Virus record (IMG/VR): IMGVR_UViG_3300036828_000413
Coordinates: 7,761 to 71,760 of that record
Source of the DNA: a virus
Length of the DNA stretch: 64,000 nt
Strand: one strand, 5' to 3'
Under the pieces are notes generated by a model that saw only the letters and a list, made by a program, of their open reading frames with translations, ran no database searches and was not told the origin of the DNA. The translations under genes and the position numbers were made by a program. Below, in pieces: positions 5,345-57,599 of the stretch (its first letter is position 1; every line of letters begins with the position of its first letter).

Positions 5345-5352
5345 GGTGAGAG

Positions 5353-5844
5353 ATGATCAGCACCAGAGCAAACCAGTCGGCCCTGCTGAAGAGCAAGGTC
5401 GACCAGCTGGAGCACAGGCTGAGGGAGCTGGAGGCGTCGGCCGTAGAGATACGGTCGATGATCAGCCGGGTGGAGGCCAGTCCTCCGCTCTCGCCCTCCT
5501 CCTTCCTGGCTCCGCACCCGGCGCCCGAGCAGCGGTCGCCCAGTGTCCCGATCTTGAAGAAGAATGGGCAGGTGCTCAAGAAGGCCCTGCCCCCACCCCC
5601 ACCCAGGGTCAAGGTAGTCAAGATCAAGAAGGGCCACCGCAAGACCAAGTTCACCACCGAGGTCATGGCCAAGATCGAGGCCTGGGTCGCAGAGGGACTG
5701 ACCAGGCTCCAGATCGCAGATCGACTTGGGACCACCCTGGGCAGTCTCCAGGTCTCGTGCTCCAGAAAGGGCGTGAGCCTGTGGGCCAAGAACCGCGCCC
5801 GCAGGCGAGAGGTCGTGATCATCAAGCAAGAGGAGGCCGCGTGA
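5353..5844 (+). CDS. Coiled-coil plus C-terminal HTH protein
   Basis: EGLTRLQIADRLGTTLGSLQVSCSRKGVSL is HTH-like. Confidence 0.65.
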   Translation: MISTRANQSALLKSKVDQLEHRLRELEASAVEIRSMISRVEASPPLSPSSFLAPHPAPEQRSPSVPILKKNGQVLKKALPPPPPRVKVVKIKKGHRKTKFTTEVMAKIEAWVAEGLTRLQIADRLGTTLGSLQVSCSRKGVSLWAKNRARRREVVIIKQEEAA

Positions 5845-37284: not shown

Positions 37285-38874
37285 TCAGCCAGGAGCACCA
37301 GAGGAGGCCTGGAACGGAGGCGGAGCTTGGCCGATGATCTGAAGATCAATTCCACGATCATACTGGAGCCTGAACTGAGCCAACACGGCGAAGATGCGAA
37401 GCTGGTTGATCAGGTCTGGCGGATAGAGCACGTTGACCCTGTTCGGATTGTTCGGATCGCGCTCCACGATCAAGTTGGCCTTGAACGCCTTGAGGTTCTC
37501 GACCAAGCCGTTCCACATGTCCATCTGATACTCATTGACTAGCTCGGCCTTGATGATGCCAGGGGTCACAATGGCCTGACCTGGACCAAACTTGGTCCCG
37601 TCGTCGGCCAGCTTGCTCCTCGGGAACTTGCTAGTGATCGCATGCTTCTGATTGCGGAGCAACTTGGCCAGGGTAGCCAGCGTAGTCACCAGTTCATACG
37701 CATCGTCCGGAGACCCATAGAGGTTCAGCTGGTAGGTCGTCTGTTCCCTCAGGATCATCGGCTGGTCGTCGGTCCCAACTTCCTGGATGGCCAAACCATT
37801 GGAGGCCAAGCTGTTCAGCTCAACAAAGTCGAACCTGTCCTGCAGCGGACAACCCTTGATATTGTTCAGCGAGAGGGTCTGGAGCGGTCTCGCCGGGTCA
37901 TTGATCAGAGCCCGCTGGGCCTTGGCGGTATAGGCTGCGGCGCACTCAAACATCGGAGACGGTGTAGTCGTCTCAAACGCCATGATGCTCTCCACGCCGC
38001 TGTTCAGGGTGTCTCCAAACGCAATCAAGGCGGCGTAGGTCCCTCGCTTGGCACTGAACACGTGGCCGAACTGCTGGCGCTGCCATCCCCAGCGACCAGT
38101 GTCCGTGAAGCCATACTCCTGGTCCCACGCGAACAGTGAATTGGTGTCCGAATAGGGCAGGGCCACGTACTCGTAGGCCTTCTTTTGAATGTTGGCGATG
38201 GCCGTCGTCATGACTGGCACGCCAGTGCCTCCGGTCAAGAGGCCGGTCGCCGGCAGGGCCATCACTAGACCTGGAGGAGTTATCTCTGATCCAATCGTGC
38301 CATAGTAGTTCAGCTGGATCGTAATCTCATTGCCGTTGACACCCTTGAACAGAGAGGTCAGCGTCACTGTGCCACCAGTTGATGCCGCCGATACGGGCAG
38401 AGCTGGGTTTCCAACCGTGTCAGTAAACGCATTGATGGCATCGGCGATGGCTTGACCAATGGTAACGACCGTGTCGGTGGACATGATATTGATCGGAACG
38501 TGGGTCCCAGCGATGTAGAGGTGGATCGTTCCGGCCTCAGTTGGAGCCGTGGTCACGTTGATGGTTCCGGTACTAGCGACACCTCCCGTCGGCTCTGCGA
38601 GCGGGAGACCCCAAACCTCATTGGCAAAATTATTTTTATAGAAGGCCTGGAACATTCGAGAGAGCTCGGACCCAGGACCAAAATGCTTATCGGCCTGGGC
38701 TTGGCTTCCAATCGGGATCGGAATGTCATGAACGGCGTCTCCATCACTGGTCATAACGCCCACCACCAATGATATTAGATTGACCGTTGGGAGACCAGCC
38801 ATGCTGGGATCGACTTCGACCCAATAGAGCGGCACCTTGATATTGGCTGGAATGTTGGAAAAACTGATCGGCAT
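37285..38874 (-). CDS. Contractile tail sheath protein (Mu gpL-like)
   Basis: ISF..IP...KVPL...E.D, DPARPLQTL, NR.NVL.PPDL.NQLR.FA. Confidence 0.93.
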   Translation of the reverse strand: MPISFSNIPANIKVPLYWVEVDPSMAGLPTVNLISLVVGVMTSDGDAVHDIPIPIGSQAQADKHFGPGSELSRMFQAFYKNNFANEVWGLPLAEPTGGVASTGTINVTTAPTEAGTIHLYIAGTHVPINIMSTDTVVTIGQAIADAINAFTDTVGNPALPVSAASTGGTVTLTSLFKGVNGNEITIQLNYYGTIGSEITPPGLVMALPATGLLTGGTGVPVMTTAIANIQKKAYEYVALPYSDTNSLFAWDQEYGFTDTGRWGWQRQQFGHVFSAKRGTYAALIAFGDTLNSGVESIMAFETTTPSPMFECAAAYTAKAQRALINDPARPLQTLSLNNIKGCPLQDRFDFVELNSLASNGLAIQEVGTDDQPMILREQTTYQLNLYGSPDDAYELVTTLATLAKLLRNQKHAITSKFPRSKLADDGTKFGPGQAIVTPGIIKAELVNEYQMDMWNGLVENLKAFKANLIVERDPNNPNRVNVLYPPDLINQLRIFAVLAQFRLQYDRGIDLQIIGQAPPPFQASSGAPG

Positions 38875-40501: not shown

Positions 40502-41145
40502 CAGACCTCAAGCCTCACATAGTGCATGAGCAGGCTGTTGGCCGCTCCGCCGATGATCCCCTGGATCGTAAGACCCTTGCCCTGCTGGGTGGCGTCAAAG
40601 TACATCACGCGGCTGTCCTTGTGGGATATGCTTCGTATCCCTATCACGGCCAGCCTGTTCATCAGGGCCTGACCCTCTCGCACCAGCAGGGCCGCCGCCT
40701 GCTTGAGTGCGGGCGGCGTCTCGTCAGGTAACAGATAGCCTCCCCAGTAGGTCACCTTGACCGGCTCATCATTGGTTGAGAGCAGCTCAATCTTTCCAGA
40801 CTTCTCCTCGATCTCGTAGGTCGATGGGTCGAGCACGGATCCAGTTGGGCTCTCCACCGTTAGCGATGCGCTGAGGTCGAGGGGATAGTGGCTCAAGAAC
40901 ATTCGCGTCATCGTGTTGGTAGCGTCGTAGTTCACGCATCGCCAGATCTCGCTGACCTCCTCGTAGGCAAACACCCTGTTGCAGACGGTAGCGATCACGT
41001 CCGAGTATTGGGTTATGTACTCCTGGAGCACCTGGTCCTGGGTGGTGTCCGTAGGATGGATGCCGATCAAGACCTTCAGGTCAGCCAGCGAGATCAAGTC
41101 GTAGTTGTTTGCCGGAGTGAGAACCTTTATGACCCGATCAGCCAC
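40501..41145 (-). CDS. Head-tail adaptor (gp6/gp15-like)
   Basis: L.SLADLK..I.....D..L...I...CNR.F, V.Y.GGY...P.ALKQA. Confidence 0.8.
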   Translation of the reverse strand: MADRVIKVLTPANNYDLISLADLKVLIGIHPTDTTQDQVLQEYITQYSDVIATVCNRVFAYEEVSEIWRCVNYDATNTMTRMFLSHYPLDLSASLTVESPTGSVLDPSTYEIEEKSGKIELLSTNDEPVKVTYWGGYLLPDETPPALKQAAALLVREGQALMNRLAVIGIRSISHKDSRVMYFDATQQGKGLTIQGIIGGAANSLLMHYVRLEV

Positions 41146-42439
41146 GTCCAGTCTCCTCATTGTATTGCTCGAAGAGCGATCGGATGCAGACCGGCTCGAC
41201 CTCCATTCCGTTGGATAGAACTGGAGTGATCGTATAGGTCTGCCTGTCCAGCCTCCACGTCTTGATCACAGGCGCGTCCCTGCCAGGCGCTCCTGGACTA
41301 CCATTCGGACCATGGTCGCCTCGGTCTCCCTTCGGTCCCGGCTTGCCAGGCTTGCCGTGAGATGCAATCAGCTGCCAGTTGTCTCCCGGACACGATCCTG
41401 GATCGTCACACTTGGCGATGAAGCTGGAGCCATTGAGCGCCACGATGTTCAACTGGTCATAGTGCCAGTCTTCGCGATAGGTCCCACACACGATCGGCAC
41501 TGGAGCGTTGCGTCCACCGGCCGCGATGCATGTCCAGTCCTCATGCGGAGGGGCATGGACCGTGTCTCGCTTGGCCTGGTACGTGCTACCCTCGAGAGAA
41601 ACCAGATCGCTCTGGTAGTTGACTTGGCCTCTTGCGAACGGCCTGACGTCCTTCAAGACCCCCGGCGCACCATCCTTGCCGGCCTGGCCGTCCTTGCCTG
41701 TGAGGCCTTGCTCGCCCTTCTCGCCTCTTTCGCCTTGTTGACCGCAATCGCCTTGTTCACCCTTCTCACCCTTTTCGCCATCCTTGCCTCCAATTCCATT
41801 CTCGCCTCGCTCACCACGCTCACCCTGGGGACCAGAATCACCCTTCTCGCCCCGCTCCCCCGATGGCCCGCCGGGACCAAGATCGCCAGCTGGACCGACA
41901 TCTCCCCGGTCGCCCTTCTCACCCTGCTCGCCACGCTCGCCGTTGAGCCCATTCTCTCCGGGCTCTCCGTGGTCACCGGGGTCGCCCTTCTCGCCGACCT
42001 CGCCCTTTTCTCCACGCTCACCGCTCTGGCCAATCTCTCCGCGCTCGCCCTGTTCTCCGCGCTCACCCTGCTGTCCACGCCATCCCTGCTCTCCACGCTC
42101 GCCCTGCGTACCTCGCTCACCCTGGGGTCCTGGCTCACCTCGCTCTCCCTTTTCTCCCGGAGGACCAATTGGACCAGGTTCTCCGTCTCTCCCGTCCTTC
42201 AACTCGGCGAGCCTGGAGTTAATCCGCTCGTTCAAGGTAGCAACCTGGGTCTCGAGCTTGGCAATGATCGCGCCCGACTGGGCCTCCATCAGCCTGCAGT
42301 GACGCTCCCACTCCGCGTCCTTGCGATCGAGTATCTCGGCGAGGGCTATTCGCCACGCATCAAGCAGAGTTTCTTCGCCGCTGTCCAACTCGCTCAGTGA
42401 GGCGGAGAAGGTTTCTGACTTCCCGTTGGATATCATCAT
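41138..42439 (-). CDS. Collagen-like repeat protein
   Basis: N-terminal coiled coil, long G-E-R/K triplet run, short aromatic C-terminal modules. Confidence 0.85.
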   Translation of the reverse strand: MMISNGKSETFSASLSELDSGEETLLDAWRIALAEILDRKDAEWERHCRLMEAQSGAIIAKLETQVATLNERINSRLAELKDGRDGEPGPIGPPGEKGERGEPGPQGERGTQGERGEQGWRGQQGERGEQGERGEIGQSGERGEKGEVGEKGDPGDHGEPGENGLNGERGEQGEKGDRGDVGPAGDLGPGGPSGERGEKGDSGPQGERGERGENGIGGKDGEKGEKGEQGDCGQQGERGEKGEQGLTGKDGQAGKDGAPGVLKDVRPFARGQVNYQSDLVSLEGSTYQAKRDTVHAPPHEDWTCIAAGGRNAPVPIVCGTYREDWHYDQLNIVALNGSSFIAKCDDPGSCPGDNWQLIASHGKPGKPGPKGDRGDHGPNGSPGAPGRDAPVIKTWRLDRQTYTITPVLSNGMEVEPVCIRSLFEQYNEETGRG

Positions 42440-43781
42440 GGTTACCCTTCTCGGGTGGAGTAGGCTTGGCGTCCCCCGGAGGTGGCTTCGGCTCAGGACC
42501 AGCTGAGGGAGGAGCCGGAGGAGCCGCAGGGATCGCCCCAGCCGCACTCAACGGAACGACCTGTTGCTGCACCCTTGGCTCATCCCCAAACTTGACGTCC
42601 GGCAAACCCTCAGTGTTGCGGGCCTCATTGGGCGCTAAGATGCCACCCTGAACGCCCCTGGCCAGGGCGTCAATTCTTTCCTTCATGGCGGAACGCAGCA
42701 GCGCAGCGGTATCGAACTCCACATACTCATCCGGCTGGCCCTTGAGCTGGAAGAGCAGTCCAAACGCCTCTTCAACGTGGTTGAGGCAGAAGCCCAGGCC
42801 ACTGGCAATCCAGCTCTGCATCAGGAGCTCAGAGCTTCCATAGGGAGCGCCGCCTATACCCAAGATCTGGAGCGGTACTCGAAAGGCCAGCGCGATGTGC
42901 TCATTAGTCAACTTCATCATCTCTGCGGTCGCGGCGTCCTTGCCTCCAACGGCCCACGGCTGGACCTTCAATCCCGCCGTCAGGATCGGCGTACCACCCT
43001 GGTGGATGCCCTGGACCTGCTCGTTCCATCTGTCTCGAAGGGCCTGGACCTGGTCCTTGTCCAACACGAGGTCGGTAGACAAGACGGCGGACGGCCTCGC
43101 CTCGTTCATATAGAACGACTGCTGTTGCTTCGAGATCGCTCCAGCGACCGCCATGTCTCCATAGGCCGCCAGGATCGGGCTCTCACCAACCAGAGGGTTT
43201 GGAAACCGGCGGTTCACGTGGAGCTTGATGTGGAGCACGTCGCGCATGGGCACGACGAGATACTCTTCCTTGAACCTCTTGGCCACTATGTCGTTTCCGG
43301 CCAACCAATAAAATACGTCTCCGGTCTCGGCCAGGCGGGGATAGGACATCTCCGGATGCATCGGATGGAGCTCATCGATCTCATAGCGATCGTTGCGGAG
43401 CGCCAGAGCGTACGCATTTCCGGTCAGATAGAGCTGGCGAACTATGTTCAGAAGGAAGTCACTGATCGATTGGTAATCGTTGGGATGTCTCAAAGTGCGG
43501 GCGAGTGCCGAGTTCTTCACCCGGTCTCGCCCGCCCTTAGTGTTCAGTCTCCAATGGTCCCCTGGACACATGGCGACCGTCTGGGCGTAGGCTGAGACAC
43601 ACGCCTCAACCATGGCCGAGCAGGTCGTCATGAACAGAGGATCGTAGCCCTGCTGCCACCAATTGATCCCCGCGCCCGAGGGCAACCAGCCTCCCGTGAT
43701 GGGAAGATAGTATGGCCCAGGACGAAAGCCGCCCTCGACGGCCTTCAAGACGGACCTGAATTTGGCGATCAATCCGGCCAT
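42360..43781 (-). CDS. Portal protein (HK97 family)
   Basis: V.ACV..A..VA, PN.YQ..F...L.L.GNAY, G.SPI, IA.AFRVP..LG, PNEAR..EGLP. Confidence 0.93.
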   Translation of the reverse strand: MAGLIAKFRSVLKAVEGGFRPGPYYLPITGGWLPSGAGINWWQQGYDPLFMTTCSAMVEACVSAYAQTVAMCPGDHWRLNTKGGRDRVKNSALARTLRHPNDYQSISDFLLNIVRQLYLTGNAYALALRNDRYEIDELHPMHPEMSYPRLAETGDVFYWLAGNDIVAKRFKEEYLVVPMRDVLHIKLHVNRRFPNPLVGESPILAAYGDMAVAGAISKQQQSFYMNEARPSAVLSTDLVLDKDQVQALRDRWNEQVQGIHQGGTPILTAGLKVQPWAVGGKDAATAEMMKLTNEHIALAFRVPLQILGIGGAPYGSSELLMQSWIASGLGFCLNHVEEAFGLLFQLKGQPDEYVEFDTAALLRSAMKERIDALARGVQGGILAPNEARNTEGLPDVKFGDEPRVQQQVVPLSAAGAIPAAPPAPPSAGPEPKPPPGDAKPTPPEKGNHDDIQREVRNLLRLTERVGQRRRNSA

Positions 43782-44089: not shown

Positions 44090-44178
44090 GGAAGTGGAGC
44101 GGTGGTTTCCTAAGCTAAACCACCGCTCCTGGGGCAGCGGGCTCTCGCCCTCCACGTCCACCACTTCCTTGCGGAAGC
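44090..44178 (-). ncRNA. Late intergenic structured motif, copy A
   Basis: Minus strand: CTTCC-GCAA-GGAAG TGGTGGACGTGGA GGGC-GAGA-GCCC GCTGCCCC plus a 13-bp hairpin. Core shared with 52964-53058. Confidence 0.55.
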
Positions 44179-46422
44179 TCACCAAGTGACGCTCTGGGTC
44201 CAGGCCACCGTGCCAGCCCGGCGCTGCAGCCAGTTCAGAGGCAGCACCATTCTCAGGGCCAGCGAGTCGGTCTGGAACAGCGAGCGCTGCGGAGTCGCAA
44301 CGACGCCCGGAGAGCCAGCGACCAGGTCGGTCGGACTGGTGTCCTCCATGTGCAGCGTGGCCTGGTCGCTCATCTCCATTCTCGGAGCGTCACCACCGAC
44401 GACCACGAAGTCGGCCGCATCCACCAAGACCATCGTCTTTGCGGGAACGACCGCGGAGTCGATGAACGGGATGGTGGCCAGAGACCCTCCGCGGATCTCA
44501 TCCCTGAACGGGAAGATGCCCGTATTGGCGGCTGAGAGCAGAGACGCGCGGAGCATGTCCGTCTGGTTGACCAGCCAGACCAGGTTGCGGACGTTGCCAT
44601 AGGTCGCTGTACTGATCGCGTTGATCAGGCCAACGATGTCTCCAACCAGCGCCGCAATGCCGCCACCTGCGGTTGCCGTAGTGGCCGCCACGGCATTGAG
44701 CAGGCCGGCTGGCCTGATCGTGGTCGCAGGGTTCGCGTCGATCAACACCGTGTCGATCGCCACCGTGGTGTCCTGCTGGATGGCCTCTCGCAGGAGACCC
44801 TCAATCGCCGGGATGGAGTGCTCGTCCATCTCCTTGGTCCAAGTCGTAATGACCGCCATCTTCTTCGGAGTAAGCGTCTGGCTGGTGAACGCACCCTGCC
44901 TGACCGGGATGGCCAGACCCTCACCCACGAACGAGCCAGCCAGGCTGGGCGTGCGGGAGCGAGTTGGAATGATGATCTTTCCAGTCAGTCCGAAGCTCAG
45001 GCTCAGTCCTTTCGGCGCAAGCCGGGTGAGGATGCCCTTGGGCATCAGCAGCGGCATGAGCGGAGCGAACGTGGTCTGGACGAGCTCCTGGGCCCAGCCC
45101 GCTACGGTAGTCATGGCCGGGGCTGAGGCTGAACGGAGCACGATGTCAGCAATCAGCTTGACCGCGTCATCCTTGTACTCAGGATAGCGCGCGGCGATCT
45201 TGGCCAGAGTGTCCTCAAGGTTGCTGCCCCAGCCCTTGGAGAAGTAGGCCAGGGTGCCAGCCTTTACGAACAGATCGAGCGGATCGAACTCCTTCGTTCG
45301 GTTGTGGATCACCGTTGGTGCCTGCACCCGCTCGGTGCGCTCTCCGGTGGAGACAACGAGCGACCGTCCACCGCGGACGGTCTCCTGGACAGACCGCGCC
45401 AACAGCTTCTCACTGTCGACGAGGGTGTCGTGGGTCCGCTCAAGTTGGACGATGTCCTCCCTGAGCTTGCCGATGGCCTCCAGCTCAGTGCCGCTTACGT
45501 TGCTGTCATCCATCTTGTCGATATGGTCTTGAAGAACATCACGCTTGGAGGTAATTGCGGCCTCCAGGTCCATGATGCGTTGAGCGAGGCTAGACATTTG
45601 TCTGCCCTTTCCATTGCCACGATTATTCCTGGCGTGCCCGCCGTTGATCGCCTTCCTGATCGTACGGTCTCTTTTGCCTTGCCCGGCGAACACCATGTCG
45701 ATCGTCTCAGACGAGATACCCAGGGACTTTGCTACGGCGAGTGCGTTTGGGTTTGCCGGTACGGCAACCACACTGGTCTCGATCAGTTCGCACTTGGTGT
45801 AGACGCTGCCCCAGTCAGTTCCTTCTCTGTCCTTTCGCTCCTTTGGTCTGAACCCAACGGAGACTGCGCGGAGGATGTCTGCGTCGATCAGTCTCCTGAT
45901 CTCATCGATCCTCTGGCTGGTACCCTCCTTGGCCAGCTCGAGGTGACCGCGTAACTGCTTGTTCTCAATGCGGACGTTCGCCCACTTTCCAATCGGAAAA
46001 GTGCTGTTGTGGCCAAACAGCGCGATCGGGTTCTTCTTGAACTCCCGGAGGTCCCACCCGTCGGACATGATCACGTCATCCATCCGGTCCGGCGTCTCGT
46101 CCGAGAGGATGAACTCCATCCCGCTGACCTGCGAGGCGTGGGTCTTGTACTTCAGATCACTGGCCTTTCTGTCCTCCCAGAGCATCTGGCAGACGTCCTC
46201 GTTGCCGATCTCATCGACGCAGTCGGATATGAACTCATCCTGCTCGTCGTCCTCGTAGTCACCTGGGTCAGGCACCTGCTTGTCCTTGTTTCGCCAGATG
46301 TCCATGCAGATGGCCACGGCCTGGTCCTGCGGACGCTTGTCCGGACCGGTGCCAACCATCTCTGGCACGCACCTGGCCATGAAGTCACTCTGGCTCTCGC
46401 CCTTGTGGGGTTTGATTGGCAT
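44179..46422 (-). CDS. Fused prohead protease - major capsid protein (HK97 fold)
   Basis: DR.DD.I...G...KNPI.LF.H and AVSVGF..E.SVV.VPANP protease motifs, coiled-coil delta domain, then capsid FVGEG..IP...SLFQ. Confidence 0.93.
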   Translation of the reverse strand: MPIKPHKGESQSDFMARCVPEMVGTGPDKRPQDQAVAICMDIWRNKDKQVPDPGDYEDDEQDEFISDCVDEIGNEDVCQMLWEDRKASDLKYKTHASQVSGMEFILSDETPDRMDDVIMSDGWDLREFKKNPIALFGHNSTFPIGKWANVRIENKQLRGHLELAKEGTSQRIDEIRRLIDADILRAVSVGFRPKERKDREGTDWGSVYTKCELIETSVVAVPANPNALAVAKSLGISSETIDMVFAGQGKRDRTIRKAINGGHARNNRGNGKGRQMSSLAQRIMDLEAAITSKRDVLQDHIDKMDDSNVSGTELEAIGKLREDIVQLERTHDTLVDSEKLLARSVQETVRGGRSLVVSTGERTERVQAPTVIHNRTKEFDPLDLFVKAGTLAYFSKGWGSNLEDTLAKIAARYPEYKDDAVKLIADIVLRSASAPAMTTVAGWAQELVQTTFAPLMPLLMPKGILTRLAPKGLSLSFGLTGKIIIPTRSRTPSLAGSFVGEGLAIPVRQGAFTSQTLTPKKMAVITTWTKEMDEHSIPAIEGLLREAIQQDTTVAIDTVLIDANPATTIRPAGLLNAVAATTATAGGGIAALVGDIVGLINAISTATYGNVRNLVWLVNQTDMLRASLLSAANTGIFPFRDEIRGGSLATIPFIDSAVVPAKTMVLVDAADFVVVGGDAPRMEMSDQATLHMEDTSPTDLVAGSPGVVATPQRSLFQTDSLALRMVLPLNWLQRRAGTVAWTQSVTW

Positions 46423-46435
46423 CGTATTGTCCTCC

Positions 46436-47077
46436 TCACTTTCGCATGAACGCCAGCCAAGAGCCCTCCACGGACTTGATCGGCCAGCCATCCGCGACTA
46501 GACGCTCGAGCGCCCTGGTCACCTCCACGGCTGGGTTGCCGTAGTCGTGCCAAACAATAATCCCACCCCGCCTGACCAGCTCCTCAGCCAGGTAGCTCTC
46601 GTGGGTCACGGCCTCATCGCTGTGGTCTCCGTCTATGAACACGGCGTCACACGGCTCGAGGTCATCTCCGCTCAGTCTGATCGACGGAGAGGTGAGCAGG
46701 AAGAAGCGAGGGTCATCCGCCGCATATGCCCCAGCCCTCTCCGGGACCTCGGAGAGTTGGCACGAGAGCGTAGTTATGTGGTCCGGACCCACGTCGACCC
46801 CAATGTACCGCTCCAGGGTCTCCACGCACTCCAGCACCCGCTTGGCCGTGATCCCAATGTTGCAGCCAAACTCAACCATGACTCTCGGCGAGACACTCCT
46901 GACCAGATCGACCAAGATTGAGGTCTCGCTGCCGTTGAGATACTTGCTGAAGTGACTCGCCTTGACCTGGGTTGGTTTTATCGAGACCTGGCTCAGCGCT
47001 GATCCAGTGCGCTGAGCCAGTCTCCGTCCACGACTTGGCGACACAATCTGACGTTGTCGTACCATCTCACACCCCAC
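46436..47077 (-). CDS. Class I SAM methyltransferase (Methyltransf_24-like); start uncertain
   Basis: MVEFGCNIG, YIGVD, DAVFIDGDHS..AV, GGIIVWHDY. Confidence 0.85.
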   Translation of the reverse strand: MGCEMVRQRQIVSPSRGRRLAQRTGSALSQVSIKPTQVKASHFSKYLNGSETSILVDLVRSVSPRVMVEFGCNIGITAKRVLECVETLERYIGVDVGPDHITTLSCQLSEVPERAGAYAADDPRFFLLTSPSIRLSGDDLEPCDAVFIDGDHSDEAVTHESYLAEELVRRGGIIVWHDYGNPAVEVTRALERLVADGWPIKSVEGSWLAFMRK

Positions 47078-48168
47078 CTCCAGCTCGACCAGTACGATAG
47101 CAGTCCAGTTACTCTCGGGTGGCCGATCGCTCCAGCGAGGTGGAGCGCGGCCGTGTCTACGCTCACGATCTCATCCATGGCCGTCATCAACCCAGCGCAG
47201 TCGGCAAAGTCCTCAAACCTGTGGGGGATGACTCCGAGATCGGCCGCGAGCTCAGCACCCTGGGACTGAACGCTGTGCAGCTCTGCGTCTTGGCCCAGGG
47301 CTCGCGCGAGCAGGCCTAGCTCGATCTCTCTGGGGTAGTCTGCGTCGCAGGGCTTGCCCACTGACCACGCCAGGCCTATCCGCCTTCGCCTCTTCGACCC
47401 GAGCTCTATGTGCCACTTGTTGGTCAGGCGCATGGGCGGGCGGAGGTACGGCGCACCCAAGACGACGTCGTCTGGGGTGATGTTGAGTATGTAGAGCAGG
47501 TGGAGGATCGGAGCGAAGAAGTCGCAGTCAATTGGCTCCGCGACCACGATCCCACACTGCTCGGCCAATTTGCGCAGCTCGGGAGGCATGACCATGATCG
47601 TCTTGGGCATGTCCCGCACGTAGCGCATCATCATGATGCTGTCACCGAACCCGTGGGCGTGGAGCAAGAGCAATCGCTTTCCGGTCAGTGGCTCACCCTT
47701 CCACGGCCGCAGACCCAGCGAGAGCGCGTGCTCGACCTGGGGTCTCATGAACGGCCTGCTCTGCTCACACTCCCAGTACTCGTGGAGACCCTCGCGCCAC
47801 CTTCCGGCGGACAGCAGGATCATGGCCCGATTGAACTTGGCCCTCAGCGTGGGTGCCGCCAACAGTGTCAGGTCCGCTTCCACGAGAGCGTCCGATAGCT
47901 CATTGCGCCTGTACAGCTCAACCATCCGGTTGAAGTGGAGGAGGTAGTCATCGATGTCGGTCTTGAGCTCATTGGTGACCCTCCTCCTGCCGATCGGTCT
48001 ACCCTCATAAGACACGAGGGTAGACTCGGGCACGACCGCCCTGTGCCCGTTCTCGCCCCTGACCTCAAATACCTCTCCGCAGCCGGTCAGTCCCCTCCAG
48101 CCATAGGGCGTCTGCTCGCAGGAGACGATCGGATCCATGTCCGGCAGGTCATCGAAGAAGCCAGTCAT
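46993..48168 (-). CDS. TPR-containing GT-B glycosyltransferase (GT9-like)
   Basis: FN.A..LL..G.W.EG..EY, W.GE.L.GK.LLL...GFGD.I...RY, IGLAWS, DFAD.A.L...MD.IVSVDTA.LHLAGAIG. Confidence 0.85.
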   Translation of the reverse strand: MTGFFDDLPDMDPIVSCEQTPYGWRGLTGCGEVFEVRGENGHRAVVPESTLVSYEGRPIGRRRVTNELKTDIDDYLLHFNRMVELYRRNELSDALVEADLTLLAAPTLRAKFNRAMILLSAGRWREGLHEYWECEQSRPFMRPQVEHALSLGLRPWKGEPLTGKRLLLLHAHGFGDSIMMMRYVRDMPKTIMVMPPELRKLAEQCGIVVAEPIDCDFFAPILHLLYILNITPDDVVLGAPYLRPPMRLTNKWHIELGSKRRRRIGLAWSVGKPCDADYPREIELGLLARALGQDAELHSVQSQGAELAADLGVIPHRFEDFADCAGLMTAMDEIVSVDTAALHLAGAIGHPRVTGLLSYWSSWRWGVRWYDNVRLCRQVVDGDWLSALDQR

Positions 48169-48172
48169 CGCG

Positions 48173-49246
48173 CTACTTCCACGCTGGCGTGAGCCAGGCC
48201 ACACCTCGCGCGTCTCGGAGCACCCAGGACACGGGCCACCTCAGCTTGAGCGCGATCGAGTCGCTCTGGAACAGGCTTCGCTCTGGACCGGTTGAGCCGA
48301 ACGTGCCGGTTGGAACGGTGTCCATCAGCAGAGTGCCGGTGCTGGCCGTCTCTATGTCCGGGGTTGGACTGATCGCGGCCGCGAGTGCCTGCGGGGCGAT
48401 CACGATGACGTCGGCGCCGACCGCGGGTGAGGCCACTGGGATGATCATCGCGTCGGTGCCCTCGGCCTTGAGGCTGCCGTACCGCCCGCTGGCGCTGGCC
48501 AGGCGACCGATTGAAGAGACGATGAAGAACGGCCCATTGCCTCCGACCTGGCCCACGCCGTTGAGCAGCGTGGCCATGTCCTCGAAGAAGGCGCCGAACG
48601 CGTCCGCGTTGCCACTGGCCGTGAGCGCCACGATCCCGTTGCGGATGCCCGCTGGCGCTGCGGGGGTGGCCACAGTGTTGCCGAACAGCACCGCGTCCAG
48701 GGCCAGACCCGCAGACCTGACCAGGGTGTCTCCGATGATCGCCTCTGCGTTCGAGCTCTCGACCATCTCCCGCGTGAGCACGGCTATCGAGGCCAGCTTG
48801 TGCGGGAGCAGCGTCTGGCCAGTGTCGGAGAACTGGCGGACTGGGATGGGGTCGCCCTCGGCGACGAACCCTCCATTGGCCGCCGAGGCCACGAACCCGG
48901 GCACGCCGAGGCTCCCGGCCCCATTCCACGTGAGCAGCAGGCTTCCACCCAGCACCCTCGCCCCAGACGAGGCGGCGCCGAGCGCCTGCATGACGTCTGC
49001 GGTCACCTTGTGGGCGAGCTCCATGGCCCACCCAGGGATCGTAGTCATCGCCGGGGCTGAGGCCGCCTTGACCACCGCGGCCAGCTCTCGGTCGCTGGGC
49101 CAGAGCTCGGCGACCACGGCCTCGAACCTGGACTTTCTCACCACGGCCACGGCCCTGGCCACCAGCATTCGCCGGAACAGGTTGCCCCGAGGCAGGTCGA
49201 GCGGGGGCTCGCTCTTTTTGAAGGTTTGTATGACCAGCTCGTTCAT
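48173..49246 (-). CDS. Second major-capsid-like protein (paralog of the capsid domain of 44179-46422)
   Basis: Shares ASAPAMTT..GWA.EL, FV.EG..IPVRQ, RSLFQ.DS.AL and VAW blocks with the main capsid. Confidence 0.88.
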   Translation of the reverse strand: MNELVIQTFKKSEPPLDLPRGNLFRRMLVARAVAVVRKSRFEAVVAELWPSDRELAAVVKAASAPAMTTIPGWAMELAHKVTADVMQALGAASSGARVLGGSLLLTWNGAGSLGVPGFVASAANGGFVAEGDPIPVRQFSDTGQTLLPHKLASIAVLTREMVESSNAEAIIGDTLVRSAGLALDAVLFGNTVATPAAPAGIRNGIVALTASGNADAFGAFFEDMATLLNGVGQVGGNGPFFIVSSIGRLASASGRYGSLKAEGTDAMIIPVASPAVGADVIVIAPQALAAAISPTPDIETASTGTLLMDTVPTGTFGSTGPERSLFQSDSIALKLRWPVSWVLRDARGVAWLTPAWK

Positions 49247-50858: not shown

Positions 50859-51500
50859 CTATTTCGTCGGTGCCGGGTGGTCTACGTTCGGAGTGCCGAC
50901 CACGACCCAGCCGGTGCTCTCGCTCCAGCCGAGGTGCCACTCGATCAGCTTCTGCCTCTCCTCGTCCGGCGTATCCGGCGGCAGGAAGATCGGTGGGGTC
51001 GGGAACGGCTGGTTTGCGCCGCCCCAGATCCCGAGCGGGGGAGGAGGAATCACAATCGGGTGGCTGGGCACTCCAGGCTCGACCGCGTCCGGAGGGATGA
51101 CGATCGGGTGGGCTGGGTGGCCAGGCGAGGGCCAGATGCCCGGCGGCAAATAGATCGGGTGCTCAGGCTTGCCACCGCCAAGGCTGCCCGGAGGAATGAC
51201 GATCGGGTGGCCGGGATACACCGGGAGATAGATCGGGTGGGTGGGCACGCCGGGGGCGATCGCGTCCGGAGGGATGATGATCGGATGCGATGGACCTCCG
51301 CCCGGAGCGATCGGGTGGGCTGGGTGGCCAGGCGAGGGCCAGATGCCCGGAGGAGGTCCGCCGGGAGCGATCGGGTGCGCCGGGTAGCCTGGCCCAGGCC
51401 AGACCTCTGGCGGGGGACCGCCAGGGGCGATCGGGTGGGTCGGCACATTGCCCGACGGCTCGTCGAGCAGCATGATGTAGGCCAGTGAACCTCTTGGCAT
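50859..51500 (-). CDS. Proline-rich P-x-H-P-I repeat protein
   Basis: AGGAGG RBS. Nine PxHPI units and a Trp-containing C-terminal segment. Confidence 0.85.
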   Translation of the reverse strand: MPRGSLAYIMLLDEPSGNVPTHPIAPGGPPPEVWPGPGYPAHPIAPGGPPPGIWPSPGHPAHPIAPGGGPSHPIIIPPDAIAPGVPTHPIYLPVYPGHPIVIPPGSLGGGKPEHPIYLPPGIWPSPGHPAHPIVIPPDAVEPGVPSHPIVIPPPPLGIWGGANQPFPTPPIFLPPDTPDEERQKLIEWHLGWSESTGWVVVGTPNVDHPAPTK

Positions 51501-51667: not shown

Positions 51668-52030
51668 TTAGGGCGTTACACGGGTGAACCCGATGCCAAC
51701 ACCGGCACCCACGTTATTGGATAGCGCACCGGAGGCCGCAGCGCCATTCCCGATGCTCAACGCACCGGACGCGGCATTGCTCTGGCCAGCCGAGGCACCG
51801 ACCGCGGACGACAGGCTGCCCGCGGGCGAGTTTGCGGCGATCCCAGCACCGAGCGAGGTGTTGGTTCCAGTTGCGAGCGATCCGGCCGCGGCAGATCCAG
51901 TAGAGCCAGCAACCGTCGCCGTATTCACGTGACCAAAGTTAAATCCGGTGCCGACGGCCACGCTGGAGCCAGCAAGAGCTGGGCCAGACATGAGGGCGGC
52001 AGCGGCCACAGAGAGCAATAATTTACGCAT
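51668..52030 (-). CDS. Secreted Gly/Ala/Ser-rich protein
   Basis: Signal peptide MRKLLLSVAAAALMSGPALA. Mature region nearly uncharged. Confidence 0.8.
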   Translation of the reverse strand: MRKLLLSVAAAALMSGPALAGSSVAVGTGFNFGHVNTATVAGSTGSAAAGSLATGTNTSLGAGIAANSPAGSLSSAVGASAGQSNAASGALSIGNGAAASGALSNNVGAGVGIGFTRVTP

Positions 52031-52103
52031 AGGTCTCACCTTTGTTAGCTGCCCCGAGTGCTAGACTGGCCCGGGTGCGGCAGCGACCACCCGAGCGAGC
52101 TCG

Positions 52104-52844
52104 CTAAGACTTGGCTCCATCTGGTGCGGAGGGCTGCGCAGTCTTTTTCTTCGGGTGGTGGGTGTAGGCCCAGACCCGGCACTTCTGGCCGGGCTCGTCG
52201 TAGTCATTGCAGAGGCGGTCCCTTCCGGTCTTGCCGTCGACCAGCAGGATCGGTCCGCCGGAGTGGTTGAATGCCTGCCTGAAGTTGTCAGGCGGTGGCG
52301 GCGGAGCGGCCGCCGGGAATAATACGAAGCCCGCCGACTGGGGCGGTGGCGGCAGATAGACCACGCATATCTCGGGCATCGAGCGGTAGACGTCTGGCTG
52401 GAGGCAGAGCCTGGCGATGGCCGCCTTCTTCAGGCCGAAGCTCCAGAGCGTACGCGCATCCAGCCTCGCAGCGCAGCTTGGGTCTGGGATCGTTGTCCCA
52501 AACGTGGCCCCGGTCCCAACCACGCCAGCTCCCGCAGATACAGACCCAAGGCAGGTCTCCAGGCCCGCGGCCGCCAGACCCGGGGCGAACACGGTGGGCA
52601 CGTTTTTTATGGTCTGGGTCCCGGTGTTGTTGACGGTCTGGACGGCTGGGGTGTTGGCGTTGACCGTGAGGCTAGAGGTGGACGATCCACCCTGGCCTCC
52701 CTGGCCAGAGATCGCGACGGCCTTGGCCGCCGAGGCGGAGCTAGACTTGGCTACCCCAACCCCGGTGGCCGTGGTGGTCTGGGCGATCGCCGGGGCCGTG
52801 GTCAGCGCCAGCGACAGCGATAGTGCGTAGACGAGAGGTCTCAT
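52104..52844 (-). CDS. Secreted Cys-containing protein
   Basis: Signal peptide ending APAIA, S/T/A-rich stretch, ETCLGSVS.G...FG.T..D..C..RL..R.L...G...AA.ARLC. Confidence 0.8.
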   Translation of the reverse strand: MRPLVYALSLSLALTTAPAIAQTTTATGVGVAKSSSASAAKAVAISGQGGQGGSSTSSLTVNANTPAVQTVNNTGTQTIKNVPTVFAPGLAAAGLETCLGSVSAGAGVVGTGATFGTTIPDPSCAARLDARTLWSFGLKKAAIARLCLQPDVYRSMPEICVVYLPPPPQSAGFVLFPAAAPPPPPDNFRQAFNHSGGPILLVDGKTGRDRLCNDYDEPGQKCRVWAYTHHPKKKTAQPSAPDGAKS

Positions 52845-53726: not shown

Positions 53727-54065
53727 TCACCCGCTGGCTCGGCCAGTCCTGGCTCTCTCGTTCGAAGGATGGGCAGGATCGAGCGGCCAACCGTCCGCAC
53801 CAAACTTCACATCGTAACCGCGCAGCTCTTGCAATCGCTTGCGTCTGTCATGGCAGTCGAAGCAGAGTGACTGGAGCTCACCTATCAGGAACGAGTTATA
53901 GTCTCCACGATGAGGTACTACGTGGTCGGCCACTCTGGCCGCAGAGACCTTCCCTGCGTCGGCACACTTCCTGCATAGCGGCTCTAGCCTGAGCTGGAGG
54001 GCTCTACGCTTCCACCACCTAGCGCTATGATACCACTCGTGATACTTGCCTTTCCGTGCTGCCAT
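53727..54065 (-). CDS. HNH endonuclease (terminase-associated, HK97 gp74-like)
   Basis: WY.S.RW...R..QL..EPLC..C...VADHV.PHRGD...LQSLC..CH. Confidence 0.92.
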   Translation of the reverse strand: MAARKGKYHEWYHSARWWKRRALQLRLEPLCRKCADAGKVSAARVADHVVPHRGDYNSFLIGELQSLCFDCHDRRKRLQELRGYDVKFGADGWPLDPAHPSNERARTGRASG

Positions 54066-54156
54066 GCTTCGCACTCTGCCAAAACCACCAGCAGACTGAT
54101 TAGACTAAGCGCGAGCGAACCGTAGGGCGGCTTGTATTGGTTCTTGATTGGCCGAC

Positions 54157-54660
54157 TTATGCGGCTGCCAAGTCCGTCTCGCTATGCCAGACTGGTGTTT
54201 CTCCTCCAAAAAAGTTGGTTACGATCTTTACGCTGTTTCCGCGAAACTCATTGCACGTTCCGACGTGACCTCGCATCACTCCGGATAAGATCACGACCTT
54301 GCGACCAACGGTCAAGCGAGGCGCGACTTGGACGATCGGTGCGGGCACGAGACCCTCGCTCTCGCTGGAACGCATCTTGGAAATTTCCTCGTCTAGCCGA
54401 TCACTGCTCGCCGGGCTCTCGCCTTCCATGACGACGCCGGTTATTCCGTCTACATCGAACAGGAAATAAAACACCCTGCTCCTCACGAACAGGTAGCAGG
54501 GATAAAGCGGTTTTACGATCCAGCGCTTGCGGTGAGAGCGGCGGTCTATGGTCTGCTGGGCGAACTTGGGCCAGTAGCTCTCGGTGTCCAGCCGGGCCAG
54601 GCGCGAGACAACCGTGCTCTCCACGTTGGCCATCACCCTAGCTACTATCCAAGCTGGCAT
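54157..54660 (-). CDS. NusG/RfaH-family transcription antiterminator
   Basis: NGN domain W.V......E......L.......Y.P...PLYPCYLFV and KOW motif G.KV.I.SG.M.G..G. Confidence 0.85.
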   Translation of the reverse strand: MPAWIVARVMANVESTVVSRLARLDTESYWPKFAQQTIDRRSHRKRWIVKPLYPCYLFVRSRVFYFLFDVDGITGVVMEGESPASSDRLDEEISKMRSSESEGLVPAPIVQVAPRLTVGRKVVILSGVMRGHVGTCNEFRGNSVKIVTNFFGGETPVWHSETDLAAA

Positions 54661-54991
54661 CCTGGGGGAAGCTCCTTGAGCGAGGAGGTGAGGACTTGGC
54701 TTGGGGCGCGAGCATCCTCCAAACGAAAAAGTTTGTCCAGCTCTCAAGCGGAAGTGGCCTTGCCACACAAGATCCGATGGCTTTTTCATTTCCATTTTAG
54801 GGGCACTTTTCTAAAAGTTGCTTACTTAATTCCTTCTCTTTTTTTCCTATTCTCACACCAACTAAGAGAGCAAGGCCTAAAAAATGGAAATGGAAATGCC
54901 AGAAACATTAGAGAAACAGGAATGAATGAATAAACACTACTTTTTGTGGCAGCAAGCCTGACCCAAAGAGGGAACTAAAAAACCTCACGGA

Positions 54992-57364
54992 TTAAAGGCC
55001 CTGTAATTCTAGTGCAAGCTTGCTCAAATCTATGATGCAAAGGTCCTTGGCATCGGCGCCAGCCCAGGTGATCTCATTAGGGTCTCTGGCTGCCAGCTCC
55101 TTAGAGGTGGAGATGACCCTGGCACCTAGCGAGCGCTTGTAGCCTGGGGCAGGCTTGCTCACTTTTTGCTTGCCCACATACAGACCCTCCTGCTCGGCGA
55201 TCTTTCTGATGTACATCGGTCTCTCAGTCTTTTCGCTGGAGCGACCATTGTTGTAGACCTCGTCGATGGCCCGAACGCCGTCCTTATCGAACATGACGAT
55301 CGGCAGGCCATCCTTGGCCGCGGTAGCCAACCTGTGCACCTCGGGTGACGCTGACTTCTCCAAGTGGCCGAGCTCGCCCTCGCCGTTGCTCTCGCAGGTC
55401 ATCTTGCACCAGCGAAAGTCGTTGCGGATGAGCTCTTGCCCAACGCTGTCCGACTCCTCGACCATCTGGGTCTTGGTCGGTGTCCACGGGGCCTCGCTGC
55501 CGGCCACGACGTGGCCCCTGTCCCTGACGTAGTCCTTGGCCCACTGCTTGACCTTGCGGTAGCCGTCCTCCATGTCCAGCCAGTCGTGCAGCCTGATCCA
55601 GTACTCGTGCGACTGCTTGGACGAGCTCACCTGGGGGACGAACCACCTGCGGTCCGTGTTATCCAGCCTGAGCGCCCGCATGGAGTTGCTGCACGCGATG
55701 ATGTGGACGTGGTTGTCGACGTAGTACTCGCTGACGAACTTCTTCTCAACTCTCAGCGTCTTGTCGGTGATCACCTCCTTCAGGCGGTTGTACGCGGCGG
55801 TGCTGTGGCCCTGGTAGATTTCGTTGACCACGACCAGCTGCTTCTCAGCCCACTCCGAGAACCTGCCCAGGATGCTGCTCTCACTGGTGGTGGCCACGTT
55901 GCTCCGGCCGAGCACCCTGGACACGATGTCGGACAGCGTGGTCTTGCCGACGCCCTGCATCTCCGAGATCAGCAATAATCCGTAGTTCATCTTGACGCCC
56001 GGCTTGGCCATCAGCGTGGCCAGCCACTGCTTGATGATCTCTCGCTCATAGTCGCTTGGAAACAACCTGTCGAGAAAGTCCGTGAACAGCGTGTAGTCCA
56101 CGTGCTTGGCCTCCTTGGCAGTGTAGTCTCGCACACCGGACGGCTGGTAGACGTTCAGGCTCATCTCTCGCTCCTTGGAGAACAGGCCTGGCTTGGCCGC
56201 GGGATCGTAGATCACCTTGACGCCCTTGCCCTGCCACACCTTTCGCAGGTATCGCCCGGTGTAGTCCACGTCGGACCACGGGGCGACCACACTGTCGAAC
56301 TGGCCTTGGTTGTGGTAGCAAAACTTAGTCAGCCTGGCGTGGCAGAAGAACTCTGGGTTGACTGTGTGGATCCACTCCTCGGCGAACTCCTTGGTCAGTG
56401 TGTGACCGGGTGCACCAGCCTTGCCTGCGGTCCGCTCCAGCCGCTTTGTGGCCCACGTGGCTGGCCACGCGTAATCCATCAGTGACGTCTCTACGGTCCC
56501 AGCCCTGGACACGAGCGCGGCCGGGATGGCGTCCGCGAGGTCCCACCCGGGCGGGAAGCGGTCGTCGAACTTGATCGCGAACATCCTGCCGCCGTACCTC
56601 CGCGAGAACACCTGGGCCGCGGCCTTGCCCACGCCGTCGTTGTCGGCCACGTAGTACAGGTCGCCCTCGATCTTCTCCCGCCTGAGCTCCTCGTAGTCGC
56701 AGCGGTGGATGGCCAGAGCGCCGCCGATCGCGCCCCAGTGCTCAAACAGGGCCAGCTCGTCGCTCCACGGGTGTCGCTTTCGCTCATCCCTCCGCTCAGG
56801 GTCGTTGACCAGCCCGTCTATGAAGTGTGCGGTCTTGGCGCCCTCGTGGACCATGAGGCTCGCCTTGTTGCGTCTCACCGGTGGCTTCCAGAACGGGAGC
56901 GCACCGTCCGGCTCCATTTGCCGCCAGATTGGTCGGCCACCCTTGACTACGAACATCGTCCATGGAACGTAGTACTTCTTCCCGTCGTCGGCCTGCCTGC
57001 GCTCCTGGCACATGACCACTTCCTTGCGAGCGAGGTCCCAGAAGGTGTACAAATTTCCGCTCACTTGCCCACTGTCTAACAGGTCTTGGATGTGGGCCTC
57101 GCTGGCCCGCACGCTCTTGGGAAACTCGACCTTGCCCAACTCCTTCTTGATCGCCTCAGCCTCCTCCTCGGTGGGCGCGTACTCCTCCGCGCTGCACTCA
57201 ATCGAGAAGTCATTGGCGATCTTGACCAGGACCTTCTCCACGTAGTAGTGAGACCCGTGGTACTGCTTGATCATGAACCTGCGGAAGTTCAGCTGCTCGG
57301 CGCCGATCCGGTCGATGTATGCCCTCAGTGCGGGGAATTTGGCGTAGTGATACTCATACTCCAT
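54992..57364 (-). CDS. TOPRIM primase fused to SF3-type helicase (DUF5906-like)
   Basis: VHEGAKTA and VADND..G TOPRIM motifs. QGVGKTT Walker A, VVNEI, LKE.IT...V..K, SN...L....DRRW. Confidence 0.88.
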   Translation of the reverse strand: MEYEYHYAKFPALRAYIDRIGAEQLNFRRFMIKQYHGSHYYVEKVLVKIANDFSIECSAEEYAPTEEEAEAIKKELGKVEFPKSVRASEAHIQDLLDSGQVSGNLYTFWDLARKEVVMCQERRQADDGKKYYVPWTMFVVKGGRPIWRQMEPDGALPFWKPPVRRNKASLMVHEGAKTAHFIDGLVNDPERRDERKRHPWSDELALFEHWGAIGGALAIHRCDYEELRREKIEGDLYYVADNDGVGKAAAQVFSRRYGGRMFAIKFDDRFPPGWDLADAIPAALVSRAGTVETSLMDYAWPATWATKRLERTAGKAGAPGHTLTKEFAEEWIHTVNPEFFCHARLTKFCYHNQGQFDSVVAPWSDVDYTGRYLRKVWQGKGVKVIYDPAAKPGLFSKEREMSLNVYQPSGVRDYTAKEAKHVDYTLFTDFLDRLFPSDYEREIIKQWLATLMAKPGVKMNYGLLLISEMQGVGKTTLSDIVSRVLGRSNVATTSESSILGRFSEWAEKQLVVVNEIYQGHSTAAYNRLKEVITDKTLRVEKKFVSEYYVDNHVHIIACSNSMRALRLDNTDRRWFVPQVSSSKQSHEYWIRLHDWLDMEDGYRKVKQWAKDYVRDRGHVVAGSEAPWTPTKTQMVEESDSVGQELIRNDFRWCKMTCESNGEGELGHLEKSASPEVHRLATAAKDGLPIVMFDKDGVRAIDEVYNNGRSSEKTERPMYIRKIAEQEGLYVGKQKVSKPAPGYKRSLGARVISTSKELAARDPNEITWAGADAKDLCIIDLSKLALELQGL

Positions 57365-57599
57365 GGGATACTCCTCATGCGAGGGATTGATCGGTGATAA
57401 ATCAGGAGGAGTTGGCTTGGCGCAAGCACTCAAGCACGAACCGCAGTGTTTAATGGGTGTGAACGCGGATCCACCCACGTGGAGCTTAGACACACTTTTC
57501 TCCGTGAGTAAACAAAATAATTCATATTTTTTTACCCGTTATGAAAAATTAGTGATAGGCTTCATTTCTTCACGAAACGCCTTCCCAGGGAGCTCGTCC

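Follow-up and report, generated by a model that had tools for sequence, protein, structure and literature searches.

Two lines of described viral biology come closest to the locus reported here: capsid paralogs and virus-encoded glycosylation of capsids. T4 gp24 is a capsid paralog that has a propeptide of 10 residues compared with 65 in gp23 and forms the 11 pentons (PMC9958956), the capsid glycan of PBCV-1 is the work of A064R and A061L, which assemble and O-methylate it (PMC9614988), and glycosyltransferase genes of mycobacteriophages are taken to indicate capsid glycosylation (PMC11256854). An enzymatic parallel is FlmG, which combines tetratricopeptide repeats (TPR) with a GT-B domain and binds its protein substrate through the TPR part (PMC7591256). 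Here we describe a gene cassette in a 64,000-nt stretch of viral DNA (the window; positions 7,761 to 71,760 of IMG/VR record IMGVR_UViG_3300036828_000413), which makes up most of a 71,760-bp record rated 96% complete. The cassette consists of genes for a standalone HK97-fold capsid paralog (cap2), a glycosyltransferase (GT) and a methyltransferase (MT). It lies between the gene for the large terminase (terL) and the gene for a prohead protease-scaffold-major capsid fusion (hereafter, fusion). The three open reading frames (ORFs) were found on the minus strand where a first-pass annotation, made from the DNA letters, had placed them, and the translations contain both pairs of motifs by which it likened the two capsid proteins.

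The conserved partner of cap2 is GT, not terL. The unbiased set of loci, seeded with cap2, includes 44 viral loci and one genomic locus, and a locus was considered testable if at least 1300 nt were available downstream of cap2. GT is the next gene in 38 of the 39 testable loci, at a distance of -267 to +71 nt, and its beginning is visible in four of the six shorter ones. In locus L019 cap2 and GT are separated by another capsid copy and an ORF of 647 aa. The second set, seeded with GT, includes 80 loci, of which 70 are testable (at least 1100 nt upstream of GT), and all 70 have a standalone capsid paralog near GT. In 64 of them cap2 (at least 45% identity) is located upstream of GT, either just before it (51 loci) or at a distance of 70 nt to 3 kb (13 loci). 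In the other six the standalone capsid gene within 4 kb is more divergent (36-44% identity to cap2). Two of these six, nearly identical to each other, are rearranged: the capsid gene follows the adaptor gene and the GT-MT pair precedes the sheath gene, 2.7 kb apart. When the loci were pooled and clustered at 95% identity, GT was present in 67 of 68 testable standalone-capsid clusters, a proportion biased upward by the GT-seeded loci. Together with the purifying selection described below, these observations support cap2 and GT as a real conserved cassette, a product of neither chance nor decay. Co-occurrence across genomes, which the first-pass annotation had set beforehand as a check, holds for GT; MT turned out to be optional (see below).

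The relationship with terL is looser. In the window cap2 starts with an ATG 10 bases past the terL stop codon, and the AGGAG motif (7-nt spacer) overlaps this stop. The tight coupling to terL pointed out in the first-pass annotation is therefore real in this genome, but it is not conserved, as in L017, L021, L025 and L042 kilobases separate terL and cap2. Moreover, among relatives the identity to the window terL varies from 34 to 95%, while that of cap2 stays at 84-87%. Thus, terL is a neighbour of the cassette here and not its conserved partner.

Sequence comparison assigns cap2 to the capsid part of the fusion. BLASTP aligned it with the 770-aa fusion ORF at 34% identity over 317 aa (E = 2e-28; residues 58-351 of cap2 and 451-764 of the fusion), and hhalign comparison of the two family profiles resulted in a probability of 100 and E = 3.4e-45 (residues 20-351 of cap2 and 379-743 of 747 of the fusion). 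Because cap2 aligns solely with the capsid part, it represents that part alone, without Peptidase_S78 and without the region between protease and capsid; in the profile alignment it has no counterpart of the protease-scaffold part of ~380 residues. The AlphaFold2 model (pLDDT 82.8) features a complete HK97 fold. Foldseek returned 260 PDB matches at E ≤ 0.001 (best 8gta, 2.9e-11), with phage capsids, including that of HK97 (1ohg), and encapsulins at the top. The initial description of the protein as an HK97-fold paralog without a protease or a long scaffold domain is thereby borne out. At the family level cap2 has no Pfam or NCBIfam match at E ≤ 0.01, although some orthologues carry PF05065. 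The best match of its profile to solved structures is 9d9w (E = 0.0059), and an encapsulin is matched at E = 0.085. We also considered cap2 as an encapsulin shell protein and rejected this assignment, since the likeness is at the fold level only, the neighbours are phage head genes and there is no match to a Pfam family.

Homologues of cap2 are numerous. There are at least 363 in a 90%-clustered collection, and a profile search of a 50%-clustered library returned 936 representatives at E ≤ 1e-30, the best 150 of which are mostly ~350 aa long. L019 (2139-3179) and L134 (~4808-5641) have two standalone capsid paralogs in addition to the fusion, that is, three capsid-fold genes per head module.

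The cap2 gene is under purifying selection, with dN/dS of 0.05-0.20 in 10 pairwise comparisons (with the four closest relatives and among them); the corresponding values are 0.13-0.15 for GT, 0.08-0.10 for the fusion and 0.03-0.06 for portal. Decay of the paralog, for which the first-pass annotation expected dN/dS near 1, is not what we observe. The same data bear on the idea that cap2 is superfluous, left behind when two head modules recombined, and is being lost. Base composition gives this idea some ground, as the GC content of cap2 (0.682) and terL (0.661) differs from that of GT (0.620), MT (0.602) and the fusion (0.610), and terL is mosaic. In the comparison with L003, cap2 and the fusion are 83-84% identical, GT 65%, MT 63-71% and terL 34%; together with the uneven GC content, these unequal identities indicate a mosaic history inside the module. 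However, the low dN/dS values, the intact full-length copies of cap2 in 112 loci (73 clusters at 95% identity) and 38 invariant columns across 67 sequences all speak against a gene being lost, and we consider the leftover explanation close to refuted.

Judging from its predicted structure, GT looks like a TPR module placed N-terminally to a GT9-like GT-B domain, a build as in protein O-glycosyltransferases. The AlphaFold2 model (pLDDT 90.4) consists of a beta domain (residues 22-76), TPR-like helices (84-146) and a GT-B/Rossmann-type part (178-400). Its best Foldseek matches are lipopolysaccharide heptosyltransferases and a GT9 protein (1psw, 1.6e-5; 3tov; 2h1h), with a TM-score of only 0.40. 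Further matches include WaaC, OGT, SPINDLY (SPY), FUT8 and the protein heptosyltransferase TibC. Orthologues are more telling than the window protein: at E ≤ 0.1 PF01075 (GT9) was detected in 26 of 27 (best 3.8e-5) and TPR_2 in 18 of 27. The family profile matches TPR proteins in PDB (8bu0, 5.4e-05), and the single GT sequence produced nothing meaningful against solved structures (E ≥ 0.41). Residues H182, G185, G187, D188, D350, T351 and H355 are invariant. The first-pass label of a TPR/GT9-like enzyme thus stands on the model and on the orthologues, the window protein itself being below curated cut-offs. Prediction of a cap2-GT complex from alignments gave scores of 0.05 and 0.02 (the mark being 0.32), which count neither for nor against binding. 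The Proteobacteria metagenome-assembled genome (MAG) that holds a cap2 prophage also encodes two chromosomal TPR-rich GT9-like proteins of 640-671 aa, counted from the first start codon (L050 8763-10685, minus strand; L051 8748-10763, plus strand). They are 34-35% identical to the phage GT, and their neighbours are uninformative housekeeping genes.

MT matches Methyltransf_24 (PF13578) with 45.3 bits, above the 26.3-bit cut-off, in agreement with its original designation. In PDB its family profile retrieves O-methyltransferases of the cation-dependent class (best 6jcl, 4.6e-5), and D145 and D147 are invariant. Relatives of the window-type MT occur in 23 loci of the cap2 set. Divergent counterparts, scanned in L007, L009, L011, L020 and L040, match TylF (5e-12 to 2.6e-18); L041, being identical to L040 over the shared genes, adds to these five TylF-type loci. 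The likeness to TylF and the neighbouring GT suggest a sugar hydroxyl as a candidate substrate. In six loci there is no MT between GT and the fusion gene, so MT is an optional part of the cassette. In the close relatives L005 (6300-12804) and L006 (6543-12963), both with a cap2 85% identical, its place is taken by an insert of ~6 kb that codes for Methyltransf_23 and MptE-like (PF01973) proteins, several family-less ORFs and, in L006, a GDSL hydrolase. Such variation of tailoring genes behind GT, even between close relatives, is as expected for a surface glycan. Large ORFs (424-1043 aa) without a Pfam match are also located between GT/MT and the fusion gene in L007, L009, L038, L040, L010 and L019.

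Relatives without the cassette reveal that it is an insertion between terL and the main capsid gene, just as the first-pass annotation had it. Two prophages in bacterial genomes, L062 (fusion 54%, portal 71%, sheath 67-78% identity) and L064 (fusion 36%, portal 52%), have terL/HNH and then directly the fusion gene, with no cap2, GT or MT. The terL of L062 matches in three pieces, and this prophage may be damaged. Three cultured phages with ~25% identity to the fusion have terL-(protease)capsid-small gene-portal without an intervening gene; we take this order, shared with the two prophages, to be the ancestral one. Otherwise, cultured phages are remote. Among 50,697 phage records tblastn with cap2 found four weak matches in Ralstonia phages (~27%), GT had one match (21.6%) and the fusion matched 115 records, all below 60% identity. 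No isolate offers itself as a model.

To place cap2 relative to other capsid proteins we used phylogenetic trees. All of them are quick IQ-TREE reconstructions with SH-aLRT support only, have long branches and are unrooted, and the groups were named after the tree had been seen. An initial tree of 38 cap2 rows and 22 rows of fusion capsid domains keeps the two cleanly apart, with longer branches in cap2. When outgroups were included, a single branch (96% SH-aLRT) split the sequences into two groups. On one side the fusion capsid domains fall together with L062, L064 and all three cultured phages; on the other, cap2 is joined by the additional L019 copy and by four lone capsid genes found in bacterial genomes. 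Constraining cap2 to group with the capsid domains of its own lineage, without the lone genes, costs 57.8 log-likelihood units and is rejected (AU p = 7e-6), while a constraint uniting everything except the cultured phages and L064 is not (AU p = 0.43). A recent tandem duplication of the neighbouring capsid gene therefore does not account for cap2. The gene may have originated either by an old duplication within the wider lineage or by acquisition, the two being indistinguishable here. Among the bacterial lone genes, that of L060 (5944-10601) is next to a RepB-primase/DUF5906 protein and that of L061 (5761-12598) is next to an integrase, Prim-Pol and VapE. No other head genes were detected in these two neighbourhoods, and the arrangement looks like that of phage satellites.

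The latter grouping raises the possibility that cap2 is not a virion component and takes part in conflicts about how capsids are assembled. As a subunit it could interfere with satellites or capsid-sensing defences or serve as a decoy for them; alternatively, it could be a satellite gene, since domesticated, that redirects the size of the shell. Apart from the association with lone capsid genes, two of them in a satellite-like setting, the faster evolution of cap2 compared with the main capsid domain (its longer branches) is consistent with such a role. On the other hand, the position, gene order and strong ribosome-binding site of cap2 fit a late structural gene, a fused form described below looks structural, the island copies have no GT, and the tree behind the grouping is long-branched and unrooted. 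The decoy variant, put forward in the first-pass annotation, found nothing in its support, and a PADLOC defence search with seven proteins returned no match. We regard a role in assembly conflict as quite unlikely.

The reading that we favour, tentatively and as possible rather than probable, is that cap2 is a minor surface-display subunit of the shell, possibly at vertices, which is O-glycosylated by the coupled GT, the sugar then being methylated. According to this proposal, cap2 would be built into the shell alongside the fusion protein, on which, having no scaffold or protease of its own, it presumably relies for assembly and maturation. Its task would be to bear an attached group on the outside of the head, a sugar in the case of this phage. 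The translationally coupled GT would add this sugar in the cytoplasm, its N-terminal beta and TPR part holding the protein substrate and its GT9-like GT-B part transferring the sugar, and the O-methyltransferase would cap a sugar hydroxyl. The most likely place for cap2 would be the vertices (pentons), as for T4 gp24, which is the weakest step of the proposal. We infer that cap2 is present in the virion and accepts the sugar, as well as its position in the shell, the nature of the donor sugar and the atom that is methylated. The modification cassette anticipated by the first-pass annotation holds as far as the cap2-GT linkage in both locus sets and the apparent sugar-handling type of the enzymes are concerned, and is weakened by the six loci that lack MT. 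Its interpretation as a whole is partly supported, the vertex location and the actual glycan being the conjectural parts.

A number of observations weigh against this display role. First, the case is built at the gene level, and both a virion subunit made of cap2 and its glycan are predictions. Second, relatives manage with the fusion or a single capsid gene only, so cap2 is not needed to close the shell, and a penton role would therefore require that the main capsid protein has secondarily lost this ability. Third, the sole exception in the cap2-seeded set, L047 (the Proteobacteria MAG), has cap2 followed directly by the fusion gene, with neither GT nor MT, which means that the sugar is not essential to cap2. 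Fourth, GT and MT do not always co-diverge with cap2 (in L003, 65% and 63-71% identity compared with 84%). Fifth, cap2 is not a local duplicate, as gp24 is thought to be, and groups with lone genes of integrase-primase islands. The enzymes are not free of ambiguity either. GT is below the cut-offs of both Pfam GT9 (E = 0.0042; 16.9 bits against 22) and NCBIfam heptsyl_trn_I (16.8 against 185.3), and MT has a partial PHROG match (1.4e-06, residues 142-200) to a family labelled DNA methyltransferase. Finally, characterised GT9 enzymes act mostly on lipopolysaccharide.

The last point leads to an explanation in which cap2 is a shell or assembly protein, but GT and MT act elsewhere, with the junction merely tolerating insertions. 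Their target might be the lipopolysaccharide or exopolysaccharide of the host, in the service of lysogenic conversion or superinfection exclusion, or it might be the collagen-like protein or the main capsid protein. The structural relatives of GT being lipopolysaccharide heptosyltransferases fits this explanation, and so does the presence of a collagen-like protein in the same module. GT homologues in a Bradyrhizobium genome (two copies) imply that at least some members are prophages. In addition, the gene content after GT varies and GT can be exchanged independently of cap2, as morons are. It is harder to reconcile with the standalone capsid paralog accompanying GT in every testable GT-seeded locus, including a rearranged genome, and with L062 and L064, which lack both cap2 and GT, yet keep the fusion and collagen genes. 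Furthermore, the TPR plus GT-B build is that of protein glycosyltransferases, and the genes reside inside the late head operon, where a simple consensus scan of the minus strand detected no terminator-like site from terL through the fusion gene. We therefore consider a different target of the enzymes unlikely.

The proposed display role of cap2 receives a further argument from a fused form. The best 150 cap2 representatives include two long proteins, of 819 aa (P0314) and 894 aa, with the cap2-like domain at residues 1-357. The 894-aa protein is encoded in L143 (1578-4262), a distant relative represented by a viral contig of 67.7 kb. The next gene downstream is a fusion gene (43%), which is followed by portal (64%) and collagen-like genes; there is no GT or MT in the locus. 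Its C-terminal extension of ~540 aa displays, by eye, a repeated motif and Gly/Pro-rich linkers. The extension has no sequence match in PDB. Sub-threshold Atlas leads point to fibre-like clusters (scores ≤ 0.87, TM ≤ 0.43), and we left the fold unnamed. The C-terminus of HK97-fold shell proteins and of encapsulins points outward. If this applies here, the L143 protein would be a capsid-fold subunit with an external appendage, occupying the slot of cap2 and the transferase. A cap2-like domain fused to an extension, in the same slot and without GT, fits a display subunit. The long proteins P0314 and P0334 were also considered as cap2-GT fusions and rejected, as they have no GT part (hhalign probability 0.1).

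These observations can be joined into a broader reading, which we consider doubtful. The scaffold-less HK97-fold family (the 936 clusters at E ≤ 1e-30) would consist of dedicated head display subunits, each occupying a place in the shell set aside for an appendage that faces outward. For most members of the present lineage this would be a methylated O-glycan added via the coupled TPR-GT9 enzyme, and for others the fused extension of ~540 aa. Integrase-primase islands would have captured such a protein, letting a satellite insert a subunit into the shell of its helper.

The features of the window relevant to the cassette are listed in Table 1. The head and tail genes are on the minus strand according to the ORF list, Pfam and PHROG.

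Table 1. Cassette genes and their surroundings in the window
Feature	Coordinates	Strand	Evidence and remarks
Primase-helicase	54992-57493		
NusG-like antiterminator	54157-54795		
HNH	53727-54074		
Three family-less proteins upstream of terL	50859-51500, 51668-52039, 52104-52844	-	
terL, large terminase, 532 aa	49257-50855	-	Pfam TerL_nuclease 7e-31, TerL_ATPase 2.5e-21
cap2, standalone HK97-fold capsid paralog, 357 aa	48173-49246	-	homology to the capsid part of the fusion; fold; phrog_617 1.2e-12
GT, ~391 aa	46993-48168 (ORF 46993-48204)	-	weak GT9 and TPR matches, AlphaFold2, Foldseek; start most likely ATG 48168, 4 bases past the cap2 stop
MT, SAM-dependent O-methyltransferase-like, ~209 aa	46436-47065 (ORF 46436-47077)	-	Methyltransf_24 1.7e-11; start probably ATG 47065
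Prohead protease-scaffold-major capsid fusion, 747 aa	44179-46422 (770-aa ORF 44179-46491)	-	Pfam (770-aa ORF): Peptidase_S78 3.2e-08 (residues 137-252), Phage_capsid 2e-09 (503-699); phrog_617 3.8e-83; NCBIfam major_cap_HK97 1e-11; start most likely ATG 46422, GGAGG 8 nt upstream
Terminator-like hairpin just past the fusion gene	44120-44140	-	consensus scan, pattern match only
Small conserved head-module protein, 94 aa	43785-44069	-	kept after the fusion gene in relatives
Portal	42360-43781	-	Pfam Phage_portal 1.4e-66
Collagen-like protein in the head module	41138-42547	-	Pfam Collagen 2.4e-34
Adaptor	after the collagen-like gene		
Sheath	37285-38874		baseplate genes further along
Tape-measure-like protein, 724 aa	34039-36213	-	
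Tape-measure-like protein, 735 aa	31832-34039	-	

Several neighbours of the cassette deserve a comment. The 94-aa head-module protein has no family match in Pfam, PHROG, NCBIfam or PADLOC. The collagen-like gene directly follows portal and is kept in relatives, including those without cap2; its product is possibly a head fibre. It overlaps the portal gene and probably starts later than the ORF, the relatives aligning from about residue 26-38. The three proteins upstream of terL are conserved in the closest relatives. One is a proline-rich repeat protein in which the motif HPI..PGG recurs, and the other two are Ala/Gly/Ser-rich and start like signal peptides. None of the three has a Pfam, NCBIfam or PADLOC family, and only one weak PHROG match was obtained for them. 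The two tandem tape-measure-like genes are paralogs, 39% identical over the first 327 residues and different in their C-terminal parts; the upstream one has Peptidase_M15_4 at residues 597-653, and the other is without a Pfam match.

The host is probably a Gram-negative alphaproteobacterium: besides the two copies in the Bradyrhizobium genome, a GT homologue was named from a Xanthobacteraceae MAG. The window DNA was matched by four soil-metagenome DNA runs, two of which hold at least half of the sampled words; the run search found no RNA sequencing runs with this DNA. Among 301 genomes around the one cap2-holding MAG, six have matches at E ≤ 1e-20. If the proposed display role is true, the cassette would be a compact and widespread sugar-coating system for the heads of soil phages, probably Bradyrhizobium-associated. 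It would also represent a division of labour undescribed for tailed phages, with one capsid protein building the shell and the second carrying surface chemistry. The system would offer a way into how phage surfaces diversify; close relatives differ in the enzymes that follow GT. The system might further serve as a natural scaffold for capsid display and suggest how satellites could interfere with the capsids of their helpers.

In relation to known systems, the cassette would combine two known ideas, a capsid paralog and virus-encoded capsid glycosylation, with an unexpected tie to satellite-like islands. This combination is previously undescribed within the literature searched, as the open-access search returned no paper on a second capsid gene coupled to a glycosyltransferase. 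The closest phages in gene organization are of the type of Salmonella phage FSL SP-016 and Rhizobium phage RHph_X2_26 (phrog_617; NCBIfam NF045541). They share the module order and the main capsid family, but between terL and capsid they lack the second capsid gene as well as GT and MT, and the identity to the fusion is ~25%. Like T4 gp24, cap2 is an additional protein of the HK97 fold, has its gene beside the main capsid gene in the head module and lacks a long N-terminal assembly part. Unlike gp24, it is no local duplicate, is encoded upstream of the main capsid gene with enzymes in between, and is dispensed with by close relatives. The comparison is one of architecture, and a penton location of cap2 is a conjecture drawn from it. 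With FlmG, OGT and SPINDLY, GT shares a TPR-like module in front of a GT-B domain, and OGT, SPY and TibC are among its structural matches. It differs from all of these in having only ~4-5 TPR-like helices, an extra N-terminal beta domain and lipopolysaccharide heptosyltransferases as its best structural matches; FlmG is likened to it by architecture. Finally, PBCV-1 and mycobacteriophages resemble the present case in having virus-borne genes for a glycosyltransferase and a sugar O-methyltransferase. Their glycan, however, is on the main capsid protein and also on the tail tube, and their enzyme families are different ones. Here, with a host that is probably alphaproteobacterial, the enzyme is of the TPR plus GT9-like type and is tied to a separate capsid paralog.

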